A program made the translations under genes and the position numbers. From a virus: a DNA stretch of 64,000 bases. Numbering within the stretch: position 1 is the stretch's first letter; every line of letters starts with the position of its first letter. The notes under the pieces were generated by a model, which saw only the letters and a program-made list of their open reading frames with translations, had not been told where the DNA came from and made no database searches. The stretch lies in IMG/VR virus record IMGVR_UViG_3300045988_035499, one strand, 5' to 3'. Shown here in pieces: positions 36,548 through 62,033 of this stretch.

Positions 36548-36943
36548 TCTCTTAACCTTAAAACTCTTTTTTTAATGAAATCAATGTTTTTTACAAAACC
36601 CTGAAGTTTGTCTTACGACAGGGACAACAGGGGATTATAGGCTTAGAGTTTATACAGGAACTCTCTCAAACCTGCCCACTTACGATTGGGTCCATCATGA
36701 GCTGTGTTAACTATAAGCTTCCTTATATAGCTAGTGACTTAGGAATTTACGTTGTGCCGGCCTGCAACTTCACTATCGTAGAAAGGTTTGTGAGATAAAA
36801 TGCCAACGCCTCAGCTATCTCACACATTACCCAAATCGTGAATTGACCTTTCTAATAAATAAGTTAAAGGTAAGTAGAGGGTCATTCTTATCATATTTCA
36901 GAAGTTCGGATACTACCCACAGCTACTGCAAACTTACCTTTAT
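36548..36943 (-). ncRNA. unclassified structured RNA downstream of suppressor-tRNA exon 2
   Basis: About 400 nt with no ORF and G+C above the surroundings. Nested long stems AAAGGTAAGT/ACTTACCTTT, AAAGGT/ACCTTT and GTGAGAT/ATCTCAC. Contains GAAAGGTCAA and TTCCTAAGTCA strings that resemble group I P/Q elements. Confidence 0.4.
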
Positions 36944-36983
36944 TGGTAGCCCCACTACGACTCGAACGCAGACTAAGAGGGTT

Positions 36984-37981
36984 CATTTACTCGACTATTG
37001 CATCCAATCCTAAGATCAGTCTTCTCGTTTAGTCTGTCACGCTGCTTTCGCTTGCGCCTCGTCAACATTTCTGTCTTCCGAGTCAATTAGAGAAGATTCT
37101 AATAGTGGATTATTTATTATCCCACTACCATCCAATATAGTCCAATAACTATTTAACCAAAAATTATCTTTATTGTAACTTATAGTTCTAGTGCAAGTTT
37201 TTATTCTTTTAGTCTTAACTTCACCTTTATCTATAAGGGCTTTGGCCGCTTCTACTAAACTTCCATATCGAGCTATTTCTTTATGGTTGTTATCGTATCG
37301 TATTACATATCTTTGGTTTGAATGTTTTTGACCGGTCTCATTTACTATAGCAGTTACAACTTTGCGTCTAATACCTAGAATACTAGATACTTGTTTAACA
37401 TTTCTAACTCTGTCATAAGTATCAGATACTAACTTTCTTAATTCGTCAGTTATCTCATATTTAGATTCGTTTCTTTGTTGATTTCTACTACCATAAGTAG
37501 TGGTCTGACTATGACAATTAGGACAAAGAAATCTTAAATTTTCAAGTCTATTATCATTATTTATACCATTTATATGATCTACTTCTAAGCTTAATGTTTT
37601 ATCATTCCACTTATTTATCCCACATATGGCACATTTATAAGGTAATAGATTATTCTTTATTATACTTCTTCTAAGTACGGATCTTGTATGTTTACAATTT
37701 TCTCTAAATAGTACATCTGGAGATATCTCTTTGTCTTTATTAGATTTTAAGTAAGCATTCTTTCCTTTGAAATTAGAACTATCTAAGTTCAAGTCTGCCA
37801 TCCTTCGTTTGATTTGAGAATAGCCCCAAGAATTTCCGTTTGTTGTATATCCTAATTTAAATAATACTTCTGCAATATTTGTACTGTTGCATATTAATTC
37901 TACAAACTGTTCGTCTGTACATTCGTATATTTTGTTTATCATAGCTTTATTTTTAACATTCAATTAATCATCGAACTTCTA
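36984..37981 (-). mobile_element. group I-like intron carrying an HNH homing endonuclease gene, inserted in the tRNA anticodon loop
   Basis: U precedes the 5' junction and G is the last intron nt. P3 is TCTTCTC (37096-37090) / GAGAAGA (37026-37020). P7 is CAGACT (37036-37031) / AGTCG (36996-36992). A short P8 hairpin lies between them. P1 and P4-P6 were not resolved by eye. Confidence 0.6.
37037..37942 (-). CDS. HNH homing endonuclease (intron-encoded)
   Basis: EVDHINGINNDNRLENLRFLCPNCHS HNH motif preceded by CxxC. ATG 37940-37942 (the track uses an upstream TTG at 37963). TGA 37037-37039 overlaps the intron core. Confidence 0.85.
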   Translation of the reverse strand: MINKIYECTDEQFVELICNSTNIAEVLFKLGYTTNGNSWGYSQIKRRMADLNLDSSNFKGKNAYLKSNKDKEISPDVLFRENCKHTRSVLRRSIIKNNLLPYKCAICGINKWNDKTLSLEVDHINGINNDNRLENLRFLCPNCHSQTTTYGSRNQQRNESKYEITDELRKLVSDTYDRVRNVKQVSSILGIRRKVVTAIVNETGQKHSNQRYVIRYDNNHKEIARYGSLVEAAKALIDKGEVKTKRIKTCTRTISYNKDNFWLNSYWTILDGSGIINNPLLESSLIDSEDRNVDEAQAKAA

Positions 37982-38024
37982 AGAGCCTCCTGTGCTAACC
38001 ATTACACCATAGGGCAATATTAAG

Positions 38025-46719: not shown

Positions 46720-46850
46720 TTAATGCAGTAAATATTACTGCATCTATACTGTGAGAATCAGTATCAACTTTGTGGGGCTTATATTTAGACAATGTGTGAT
46801 AATAGTTGCAAATATTATTATATAATCTAATATTAGTGCAGATGAAATCA
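46720..46850 (+). repeat. RNA module copy A
   Basis: Hairpin ATACTG-TGAGAAT-CAGTAT, TGTGGGGC at 46771-46778, a variable segment, then GTGCAGATGAAATCA at 46836-46850. Confidence 0.5.
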
Positions 46851-46929
46851 AAGATAGTTCGTATTTGCGGTATTGCGGGATACGAACAAGTCAAGTCATT
46901 ATAAGACTGGGTAGCGTGATACAAAAAAT

Positions 46930-47069
46930 CCTAGCTGACCTGTAGCTAGGTATCTTTAAGGTGAGAATCCTTGACAATCCTGTGGGGCTCATATCTTTAG
47001 CTGTCCATTCAACTTGCGCTGTAGTTGAAATCGGCAACCAGCAAAGTATTAGTGCAGACGTTAAAATCA
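46930..47069 (+). repeat. RNA module copy B
   Basis: Hairpin AAGG-TGAGAAT-CCTT, TGTGGGGC at 46981-46988, a variable hairpin, then GTGCAGACGTTAAAATCA at 47052-47069. Confidence 0.5.
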
Positions 47070-47233
47070 GGAACAACTACATCATTCCTAACAATATTAT
47101 TAGTCATAAGCTTAACAACAATACGATGTAGCCAAGTATGCCCGTCTTTAGTATCTAACAAAACTACGTTTTGCCTGTTTTTGCTGTATTATTTTTAGCA
47201 ATTCATTCCAAATGACTAGTGTGTCATTACTAA

Positions 47234-48958: not shown

Positions 48959-49102
48959 TATACTTGTCTGTGAAGATAGGTATAGTCTTCAGAAAATGAC
49001 AAACATGTGGGGCGTAAGAAATTCTATATCTATAATCCATTCTGTTTAAGTTATAGATGAAAGTAACAGAAAAGAATTTTGATCGTGCAGACGTTAAAAT
49101 CA
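48959..49102 (+). repeat. RNA module copy C
   Basis: Hairpin TATACTTGTC-TGTGAA-GATAGGTATA, TGTGGGGC at 49006-49013, variable hairpin ATCTATAA/TTATAGAT, then GTGCAGACGTTAAAATCA at 49085-49102. Confidence 0.5.
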
Positions 49103-49343
49103 TGTACTCCAATAAGGATGGTTTGACAGCTATTCCTGCTTATGAGTTAAAACTATAGTGAGAGTCAGAATATATTAGGTAAGAGAAAACAAGTGAATAC
49201 TATTTATCTTATTAACATGTTTTACAACAAAAGTGGCTAAAAGAGTTTAGCAAAAGTCTGATACTTAGACTTAAAACACAAATCCAAAAGTATCTTGGTC
49301 GTCGTCAATAATTATTAACTAACAATTTAAGATTATGTAAAAA

Positions 49344-50344: not shown

Positions 50345-50569
50345 TTTTAATTTGTTAGTAACATGGTGGATTCAGTCAACCAAAGGATTACTTAAAGCCA
50401 GAACCCTAATGGAAGCTTAGTACTACTAAGCTACTAAGCAAGAGTACAAAGGACTATACAACGGTCAACCTAGCAATAGGTCAGGAGAAGGACGTGGGCT
50501 GTCTGCGAATAAGAAGTACAAATAAGCAGAGTAATTCTTTTAAATTTAAATCATTAAATATCAAGTTAT

Positions 50570-51960: not shown

Positions 51961-52055
51961 ATAGGGTATATGACTTTGGTCGGTCATATACCCACATTGA
52001 CTGCTAGGTCTATGAATCAGTCGTATGGACGAGGGTTTGATCCCCTCCAGCTCCA
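51961..52055 (+). ncRNA. ssrA: tmRNA-like acceptor piece (T arm plus 3' acceptor strand); 5' boundary uncertain
   Basis: GTCGTATGGAC-GAGGG-TTTGATC-CCCTC-CAGCTCC-A closely matches the 3' end of bacterial tmRNA as I recall it (GGACGAGGGUUCGA.UCCCUCCAGCUCCACCA in Bacteroidota). Preceded by an 11-bp hairpin at 51964-51993. Confidence 0.6.
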
Positions 52056-52183
52056 CAACAAGTGCTAAAGGATGTGGGTGAGACTCCCTTAAGTGCTCGC
52101 GAGATAGTAATTGCTTGAGCTGCCTGATAACGGCTAGGATAATTTAGAAGCTTCGTTCTAGCTGGCACTTTATTACATTACAA

Positions 52184-52325
52184 GGGGCTGAATGAATTTG
52201 ACAGCGACAATGTGAAGTAGAATAGGTCAATAAGCAGATAACTGGCAACACAAGTTATGTAACAGATTACACTCGCTTAGTAGCGTAAGTAATCTAACGG
52301 CTAAGCTAATGTCGTAAAAAGCTGG
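52184..52325 (+). ncRNA. ssrA: tmRNA-like coding piece (5' acceptor strand, TTTGACAGCG box, tag reading frame); 3' boundary uncertain
   Basis: GGGGCTG pairs with CAGCTCC at 52048-52054, including a G3-U pair. GGGGCTGAATGAATTTGACAGCG resembles tmRNA 5' ends. This piece lies DOWNSTREAM of the acceptor piece, so the order is permuted. Confidence 0.6.
52244..52288 (+). other. candidate tmRNA tag reading frame GNTSYVTDYTRLVA-stop
   Basis: GGC resume codon in a CTGGC context as in Bacteroidota tmRNAs. Hydrophobic LVA C-terminus. TAA at 52286-52288. Confidence 0.5.
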
Positions 52326-52400
52326 AGTAAGTAAGCTTTGCATGGTAGTGAAGCCTTGGGTTTTACCAAGAGATAAGGAGTTCGAGTCTCCTACTTACTA
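52326..52400 (+). ncRNA. tRNA-like element with a 6-nt anticodon loop and A8
   Basis: Acceptor AGTAAGT/ACTTACT, D stem GCTT/AAGC with a 12-nt loop, T arm AGGAG-TTCGAGT-CTCCT, and anticodon arm CTTGG-GTTTTA-CCAAG (loop one nt short). Abuts the tmRNA-like coding piece. Confidence 0.5.
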
Positions 52401-52436
52401 CAACTAAATTAAATTTAATCAATAAATTAATTTGAA

Positions 52437-61942: not shown

Positions 61943-62013
61943 TCCTATATAGCTCAGTTGGTAGAGCCGCTAGTAATAGTGTGATTGCGCTGGTTCGAGT
62001 CCAGCTATAGGAT
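61943..62013 (+). ncRNA. tRNA-like element lacking a canonical anticodon arm
   Basis: Perfect acceptor TCCTATA/TATAGGA, D arm TAGCTCAGTTGGTAGAGC and T arm GCTGG-TTCGAGT-CCAGC. The 21 nt between them (CGCTAGTAATAGTGTGATTGC) cannot form a 5-bp stem with a 7-nt loop. Confidence 0.5.
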
Positions 62014-62033
62014 CTAATTTTAACTTTATTAAT

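Follow-up and report, generated by a model that had tools for sequence, protein, structure and literature searches.

The stretch of viral DNA analysed here, IMG/VR record IMGVR_UViG_3300045988_035499 (64,000 nucleotides (nt), called the window below), carries on its minus strand what the evidence supports as an amber-suppressor tRNA gene of the glutamine type, with anticodon CUA, that is split in its anticodon loop by an insert. The insert holds an open reading frame (ORF) for an HNH endonuclease and a conserved RNA core, and the gene stands directly upstream of a block of late genes whose frames run through TAG (Table 1). The 5' exon ends with the anticodon-loop bases C32 U33 C34 U35. The 3' exon also holds the 3' strand of the anticodon stem, the variable loop, the T arm, the 3' strand of the acceptor stem and the discriminator A, and is followed directly by genomic CCA at 36946-36944 (-). 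When joined, the two exons form a 72-nt cloverleaf (minimum free energy fold) with anticodon CUA in a 7-nt loop that contains U33, and ARAGORN calls the joined exons as tRNA(cta). CrAssphage cr53_1 has an uninterrupted gene, annotated as tRNA-Gln, whose sequence is 100% identical to these 72 nt, and in cr60_1 the same uninterrupted gene differs at a single place in the acceptor stem. Because the joined exons match the uninterrupted cr53_1 gene the position of the insert is unambiguous. The intron-less allele leaves a single possible boundary, CTCT before the insert, G as its last base and AAC after it, which places the insert between U35 and A36. An earlier reading of this DNA from its letters alone (the sequence-only reading) had given the exons at exactly these positions with CCA behind them, had folded them into the 72-nt CUA cloverleaf, now backed by ARAGORN and by identity to the cr53_1 gene, and had claimed that among joins giving a 7-nt loop just one places U ahead of the 5' junction and ends the intron with G, which enumeration and the intron-less allele both uphold. 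It had also proposed running ARAGORN, and here the outcome was divided: the joined exons were called cta, whereas the intact locus in intron mode was mis-called tRNA-Lys(ctt). In that mode ARAGORN does find the split gene, with the intron forced to the canonical position 37/38, a solution excluded by the intron-less allele. The search for a second, uninterrupted tRNA(CUA) that the same reading had suggested found none within the window.

Table 1. Positions of the features described in the text, in window coordinates
Feature	Position	Strand	Remarks
tRNA(CUA) 5' exon	38016-37982	(-)	35 nt; acceptor 5' strand, D arm, anticodon-stem 5' strand
Intron	37981-36984	(-)	998 nt; first base U, last base G (omega G, 36984)
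5' hairpin	37975-37959	(-)	TTCGAT-GATTA-ATTGAA; seven bases into intron, just upstream of ORF start
HNH homing-endonuclease ORF	37942-37037	(-)	301 amino acids (aa) from ATG 37942; TGA stop 37039-37037 inside J6/7
Candidate internal guide sequence	37136-37131	(-)	AUUGGA; 1 nt 5' of P2
P2 hairpin	37129-37122 / 37108-37101	(-)	GGTAGTGG / CCACTATT, 13-nt A-rich loop; 8 pairs, 4 compensatory
P3 5' strand	37096-37090	(-)	TCTTCTC; pairs with 37026-37020
P4-P5-P6 domain	37082-37039	(-)	P4 and P5 with compensatory changes
P4	37082-37079 / 37061-37058	(-)	CTCG/CGAG; G-C/A-U change
P5	37075-37064	(-)	GACA-GAAA-TGTT; 2 pairs compensatory
P6	37057-37039	(-)	GCGC..GC-GAAA-GC..GCGT; no variation
P7 5' strand	37036-37030	(-)	C-A(bulge)-GACTA; pairs with 36997-36992
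P3 3' strand	37026-37020	(-)	GAGAAGA; closes pseudoknot with P7
P8 hairpin	37019-37004	(-)	CTGATC-TTAG-GATTGG; 6 pairs, 3 compensatory
J8/7 and P7 3' strand	37003-36992	(-)	ATGCAA + TAGTCG; agrees with Rfam consensus GAUAUAGUC; covariation
3' tail	36991-36984	(-)	8 nt, AGTAAATG, ending in omega G; sequence variable among homologues
tRNA(CUA) 3' exon	36983-36947	(-)	37 nt; starts A36 A37 C38
TAG-recoded late gene block	36291-215	(-)	directly downstream of tRNA; ORF map with TAG as sense
TerL	36291-34240	(-)	9 in-frame TAG
Portal	34237-31733	(-)	19 in-frame TAG; further structural genes after
Three Hatchet ribozymes	46742-46853, 46952-47072, 48985-49105	(+)	85-96 bits, above Rfam gathering scores
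RAGATH-9 RNA	50372-50541	(+)	134 bits, above Rfam gathering score

The ORF within the insert has an in-frame TTG upstream of its ATG, at 37963. Its product matches Pfam PF01844 with 26 bits (cut-off 21.4) over residues 104-147 and PHROG 10822 (HNH endonuclease) at 2e-45, and a PDB sequence search with the protein gave no match. In 58 of the 60 distinct introns of the family described below the frame is intact and free of any stop codon, TAG included.

The nearest annotated relatives of the window are crAss-like phages of the family Suoliviridae (cr52_1, cr53_1, cr60_1 and others), with about 80% identity over TerL and portal. From 36291 to 215 all minus-strand ORFs either need read-through of TAG or have no TAG, and they are long and continuous when TAG is taken as sense; in addition to TerL and portal, a 1419-aa ORF of this block has 17 TAG. 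There are essentially no in-frame TAG codons in the genes upstream on the same strand (37037-41918) or in the plus-strand block. On this codon map a standard-code region gives way, within the window, to a late block in which TAG is predicted to stand for glutamine. When the TAG positions of the portal gene were compared with homologues, 28 of the 43 residues that are not TAG themselves were Q, and against cr55_1, whose portal gene has no TAG, the count was 11 of 17. These alignments suggest that TAG is read mainly as glutamine and, with the annotation of the intron-less allele as tRNA-Gln, they support the Gln-like character that the sequence-only reading had given to the tRNA. The complete Bohxovirus genome PV686213, which carries a homologous split gene, is likewise TAG-recoded: its in-frame TAGs are numerous and no suppressor is annotated. 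No other CUA tRNA was found in that complete genome, which leaves the split gene as its only candidate suppressor. The late block of PV686213 (loci L107 and L108) is fragmented even with TAG as sense, its largest ORF being 674 aa. This points to frameshift errors, to additional introns or to a second recoding; in the deposited annotation there is a run of short hypothetical proteins.

Homologous inserts and intron-less alleles

A 21-nt pattern from the 3' part of the insert matched 22 IMG/VR contigs, a second pattern matched 72 metagenome stretches, and a protein-based search with the HNH ORF contributed further loci; CAGACTNAACGAGAAGAC is a sequence pattern for scanning genomes for the split gene. 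Six metagenome matches (L037, L043, L063, L072, L074 and L085) were chance pattern matches and were removed. About 80 homologous inserts of 967-1002 nt were collected, all of them at one position in tRNA(CUA) genes. At loci where both ends of the insert are present it always lies between xUCU and A(A/G)N of the anticodon loop, and all full-length intron-bearing copies recovered have the anticodon CUA. The tRNAs that bear the intron are of several distinct kinds, with different anticodon and acceptor stems and some with an unusual T loop. Acceptor pairs 2-7 form in 100% of 37 distinct joined tRNAs, where compensatory changes give as many as five pair types at a position, and the anticodon stem is paired in 95-100% with many compensatory types. 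Each acceptor pair has one strand in the 5' exon and its partner about 1 kilobase (kb) away in the 3' exon. Since the exon halves covary across the insert they appear to be kept as one tRNA, and for this the insert must be cut out of the RNA.

The histories of intron and exons do not agree. Introns with 88-90% identity are found in tRNAs that share only about 50% identity and, conversely, tRNAs whose exons are 99% identical hold introns of only 73% identity. A 16-nt pattern across the uninterrupted anticodon stem and loop found the intron-less allele in at least 120 IMG/VR stretches, compared with 22 with the intron core. The locus L025, with the intron, and cr53_1, without it, have identical exons, and their 150-nt downstream flanks are 97% identical. 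Many other close relatives with the same genome layout are also without the intron. Incongruence between intron and exons, together with presence or absence at one site, is the pattern expected of homing and indicates that the intron is mobile.

Directly 3' of the CCA, at 36860-36943 (-), there is an element in which an 11-base-pair (bp) closing stem, AAGGTAAGTTT...ACTTACCTT, encloses about 55 nt. In cr53_1 the intron-less tRNA is followed by a near-identical copy, and the element is also found after the tRNA in L025 and L051. We considered whether this element is a theta (HDV-like) ribozyme and rejected it: there is no Rfam match and the fold energy is no better than that of shuffles. In addition, the adjoining tRNA encodes its CCA, which is rare among tRNAs adjoining theta ribozymes (PMC10879173).

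The RNA core and the splice sites

The last ~160 nt of the insert are its most conserved part and fold as a group I core with the paired segments P2-P8 and a P3/P7 pseudoknot. We annotated the structure on an unbiased MAFFT alignment (51 distinct sequences) and then counted the pairs. Standard pairs are formed in 99.6% of the 2040 cells of the core pairing, and in 12 of the 40 core pairs (112 cells) both sides have changed. These values were not matched by any of 500 column shuffles, and in a control with the 3' partners slid by 1-3 columns pairing fell to 33-47%. The outer pair of P3 alternates between U-A in 36 sequences and C-G in 15, and the last pair of P7 covaries, being A-U in 28 and G-C in 23. 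The helices come in the order P3 [P4 [P5]] [P6] P7(5') P3' [P8] P7(3'), and P7 crosses P3, which is the topology of a group I core. Sequence agreement with the Rfam Intron_gpI consensus, compared by eye, extends to the joining segments (J). The 5' strand of P3 with J3/4 reads GAAUCUUCUCUAAU in the window against AAauCuGuCgAAU; the run from the P7 5' strand through J7/3 to P3' reads GACAGACUA-AACGAGAAGAC against UCAaAGACUA-AAcGgCaGac, the P7 strand matching the consensus aAGACUA; and J8/7 with the 3' strand of P7 reads GGAUGCAAUAGUCG against UgAAGAUAUAGUC, also given as UgAAGAUAUAGUCu. In characterised group I introns a G-C pair in P7 is the guanosine-binding site, and P7 of the window holds that pair beside a bulged A. 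Topology, covariation and junction sequences together support the view that the insert is a group I-type intron.

Most of what the sequence-only reading had said of the insert stands. Its P3 (TCTTCTC/GAGAAGA), its P7 (CAGACT/AGTCG, with the bulged A) and its P8 are present and have covariation behind them, and the HNH ORF, confirmed by its Pfam score, does overlap the core, with its stop in J6/7. It had been unable to see P4-P6 or P1 with its internal guide sequence; P4-P6 has now been found, with covariation, and for the guide there is a candidate, assigned tentatively below. P2 and the extra covarying pair of P7, in CAGACT(A)/(T)AGTCG, go beyond it. Its central proposal, a split suppressor tRNA with an HNH-encoding group I-type intron at the head of a TAG-recoded block, is borne out by the intron-less allele, the ~80 loci, the covariation and the codon map.

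The HNH ORF runs over P2-P6, so the same bases serve two sets of constraints. In the body of the ORF the entropies at codon positions 1/2/3 are 0.53/0.34/1.09, and the high value at the third position shows protein-level selection. In the last ~33 codons, which lie over the candidate guide and P2-P6, they are 0.21/0.16/0.24, and this drop of the third position to 0.24 shows selection at the RNA level there. By this measure the enzyme and the RNA fold are both maintained.

At the 5' splice site all copies have U35 as the base before the junction. The candidate guide has a GGA that could pair with U33 C34 U35 (P1, 3 bp, with a U35.G wobble) and a UU that could pair with A36 A37 (P10), and the base before it is G in many homologues and could pair with C38. 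TTGGATG at this place (T4-G10 of the alignment) is invariant in the 51 sequences, including two synonymous sites. If the guide is right, its position would put the ORF inside the loop of P1. The assignment of P1 to AUUGGA is tentative because there are 4-10 such 6-mers per intron. The heptamer TTGGATG itself occurs twice in the intron on the minus strand, at 37130-37136 (the candidate guide) and at 37002-37008 (P8 3' strand and J8/7), and both copies are invariant in the 51 sequences. A guide near the 5' end of the intron was rejected: in the first ~60 bases there is no G pairing with U35 that is followed by a pair to C34. The hairpin near the 5' end is kept in most homologues with few compensatory changes and is absent in L042; as P1 or P2 it was rejected, and as a core element altogether, for its poor covariation and its absence in L042.

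At the 3' splice site the last intron base among 60 distinct full-length introns is G in 46 and A in 14. Thirteen of the terminal-A introns form a near-identical clade (Bohxovirus type) found in at least 6 different tRNA bodies, and the other one is the separate L015. The terminal-A loci, in which AGTCGGTTTAACA stands before AAC, are L003, L004, L008, L010, L011, L013, L014, L021, L022, L030, L047, L059, L088, L100 and L015. All group I introns known to us end in G. No compensating change in the clade was found in P7, J6/7 or J8/7. The terminal-A intron nevertheless seems to be tolerated because the Bohxovirus genome is rich in TAG and has no other CUA tRNA.

Several results weigh against a group I intron that splices itself. 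P6 and most of P7 are invariant, partly because the search patterns demanded them, and are therefore uninformative. Neither a P9/P9.0 hairpin nor a consistent pairing partner was found in the 7-9 variable bases after P7, nor was any pairing of the 3' tail with the 5' end of the intron. P1 is short (3 bp), its guide 6-mer is non-unique (4-10 per intron) and the invariant exons preclude covariation. In the terminal-A introns P7, including the G-C pair, is unchanged, and classical group I chemistry would not predict that they function. Finally, the Rfam group I model RF00028 (Intron_gpI) gave no match in the whole window at its gathering score; with the limit relaxed to E<=10 there was none either, whether 1451 nt or the 216-nt core was scanned. 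As a control the td intron of phage T4 was scored with RF00028 and gave 40.3 bits (E=2.7e-8), below the gathering score of 50. Thus RF00028 is insensitive, yet it detects td and does not detect this intron. The sequence-only reading had named a group I score below threshold as an outcome that would speak against it, and that is formally what was found; the objection is weak because a textbook intron such as td also scores below the threshold of the model. A covariance model that we built from the core did not detect td in the T4 locus, but this model is narrow (effective sequence number 1.04) and its td negative is uninformative. On the whole window it found the intron itself only and no second copy.

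If these results are taken at face value, the insert might be removed without autocatalytic group I chemistry, either by a protein endonuclease and an RNA ligase or with a protein-assisted second step, the fold being merely group I-like. The missing P9, the weak P1, the failure of the database models and the terminal A in a successful clade whose G-site pair is unchanged speak for this. Against it stand the P3-P8 topology, the P3/P7 pseudoknot, the bulged A and G-C pair of P7 and the sequences of J8/7 and J3/4, all of which are group I-like, as well as the U that all copies have ahead of the 5' junction and the terminal G of most lineages. We know of no such protein splicing pathway for a bacterial or phage tRNA, and we regard this explanation as very unlikely. 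The remaining alternative is that the tRNA gene is dead, the endonuclease cassette stays in the RNA and TAG is read by another suppressor, of phage or host, or by a near-cognate tRNA-Gln. The lack of an Rfam group I match agrees with this, and so does the expectation that the terminal-A clade should splice poorly; also, ~35-40 kb of the genome lie beyond the window and outside the search for CUA tRNAs. A dead gene would, however, hardly keep both exons intact and covarying as a tRNA in ~37 distinct sequences with the anticodon always CUA, nor an RNA core that is selected at synonymous sites and has compensatory changes, and the complete Bohxovirus genome is TAG-recoded without any other CUA tRNA. 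We consider a dead gene extremely unlikely.

Proposed mechanism, timing and other RNA elements

The most likely explanation, which we hold to be very probably correct, is that a mobile group I intron with an HNH homing-endonuclease gene invaded a Gln-type amber-suppressor tRNA between U35 and A36. We infer that this intron is self-splicing. In the first of the two usual transesterifications a guanosine cofactor would attack after U35, and in the second the freed 3'-OH of U35 would attack after the terminal G, so that the expected spliced junction would be GGAGGCUCU joined directly to AACCCUCU. Splicing would restore the loop CUCUAAC and with it a working suppressor, which late-gene translation would need. 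The HNH enzyme would be made in the standard code, for which the suppressor is not required, and it would cut the intron-less tRNA(CUA) genes of co-infecting relatives, into which the intron would then be copied. The intron would most simply be a selfish element, tolerated by the phage since it is spliced, and not a regulator.

The sequence-only reading had gone further and suggested that splicing, and possibly expression of the endonuclease, gates the code switch. In such a scheme, which would add to the mobile-intron explanation and not replace it, the intron has been co-opted as a timer and the suppressor appears only after splicing: ribosomes on the HNH ORF would traverse P2-P6 and block folding of the ribozyme, and the balance between endonuclease translation and splicing would set when the TAG-containing late genes are translated. 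The ORF does overlap the ribozyme core through P6 and avoids TAG, the tRNA is directly upstream of the first recoded gene, a conserved hairpin adjoins the start of the ORF, and ORFs that reach into the core need tight control of their expression, according to a review (PMC3984707). Against this, intron-less alleles are in the majority and are found in close relatives with the same gene order, L042 is without the 5' hairpin, and the incongruent histories of intron and exons point to recent horizontal spread and not to a long-held regulatory role. Since intron-less close relatives are common, the code switch works without the intron. Gating is thus left without support, the intron being optional, mobile and absent from many close relatives of the same layout, and we think a timer unlikely. 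It is similarly improbable that competition between splicing and translation times the TAG=Gln switch and, at the same time, that the terminal-A clade splices by a 3'-site rule new to group I introns. A promoter and terminator scan around the locus, made with sigma-70 rules that are ill-suited to Bacteroidota, gave nothing above chance.

A tRNA-like RNA of 104 nt lies 8 nt upstream of the split tRNA, at 38025-38128 (-), and scores 34 bits with the Rfam tRNA model. It has a 32-nt insertion in the anticodon region and its D arm resembles that of E. coli tRNA-Leu. Its family counts at least 61 IMG/VR stretches, in which covariation is strong in the acceptor and T stems (compensatory changes at 11 pairs) and an invariant hairpin, UUGACGGAAGCGCC..AAGUCGUC, takes the place of the anticodon arm; the only variable triplet in this hairpin is CUA, CUG, UUA, AUA or CCA. 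The RNA is very often found just upstream of tRNA(CUA), with or without the intron, and is unannotated in RefSeq cr60_1. In one member, L229 (IMGVR_UViG_3300028920_001413), the conserved central hairpin is followed by an extra hairpin of ~21 nt (CCGTAGCGGGAAACCGTGG...). Two tRNA-like genes with 6-nt 'anticodon' loops are at 61943-62014 (+), which scores 45 bits as a tRNA and has UAGUAAUAG in its anticodon arm, and at 52330-52401 (+). The latter is overlapped by a permuted tmRNA called by ARAGORN at 51963-52379 (+), which is probably spurious. The plus strand also has the Hatchet and RAGATH-9 RNAs of Table 1.

Relation to known systems

The suppressor tRNA itself has close counterparts. Among recoded gut phages, crAss-like ones and others (Yutin 2021, PMC7886860; Borges 2021 preprint) have the same suppressor tRNA without interruption, in the same position upstream of TerL and with the same late recoding of TAG to glutamine. 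Unlike theirs, the gene described here is split by 1 kb and is missed or mis-called by tRNA finders. Recoded crAss-like genomes without a detectable suppressor were reported by Yutin et al. 2021 (PMC7886860), and recoded genomes of this kind are also found in a 2025 paper on zeta-crAss phages (PMC12386605) and in a 2026 preprint (10.64898/2026.08.21.746148), where the same is recorded for a reassigned Suoliviridae phage; these papers invoke host suppressors or undetectable tRNAs (PMC7886860, PMC12386605, 10.64898/2026.08.21.746148). A 1-kb intron in the anticodon loop would be a concrete and checkable cause of such "missing" suppressors in some recoded phages, and the Bohxovirus record is an example. 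Late-gene translation in an intron-bearing phage would then hinge on a single splicing event. As a compact ribozyme with no P9, with an ORF that would lie in the P1 loop and overlaps the core, and with a natural terminal-A variant, the intron is also of experimental interest.

As an intron it can be compared with two groups. Group I introns of cellular tRNA genes are inserted after a U in the anticodon loop, and the anticodon stem of their exons brackets the splice sites, as here. Those listed in PMC3984707 likewise have a group I-type core within a tRNA that requires splicing. They differ from the present intron in that this one is in a phage, in a stop-codon suppressor tRNA and inserted at 35/36, with a 301-aa HNH ORF that overlaps the core and with no P9 found. 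The tRNA-fMet intron of Synechocystis encodes an endonuclease, I-SspI, which to our knowledge is not an HNH enzyme. That intron resides in a cyanobacterial chromosome, in an initiator tRNA, and has no link to the genetic code (Bonocora and Shub 2001, cited in PMC3984707). The second group, phage introns with HNH or GIY-YIG homing endonucleases such as T4 td with I-TevI, the SPO1 DNA polymerase intron with I-HmuI and RB3 nrdB with I-TevIII, are also mobile group I introns of lytic phages that are polymorphic for presence and absence, and in some of them the ORF encroaches on the ribozyme as it does here. They are in protein-coding genes, whereas the present intron is in a tRNA gene, and the T4 td core has no sequence relation to it that our own model could detect. 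All phage introns known to Hausner et al. 2014 were in protein-coding genes despite the many tRNA genes of phages (PMC3984707). The literature that we found describes suppressor tRNAs of crAss-like phages and group I introns in their protein genes, and no description of an intron in a suppressor tRNA was met with in the full-text literature searched, which excluded subscription journals. As far as that literature shows, this would be the first phage tRNA gene with a group I intron. The intron is of a known kind, the group I intron in a tRNA anticodon loop, and what sets it apart is the lack of a P9, the phage host, the amber suppressor, the core-overlapping HNH ORF and the terminal-A clade.

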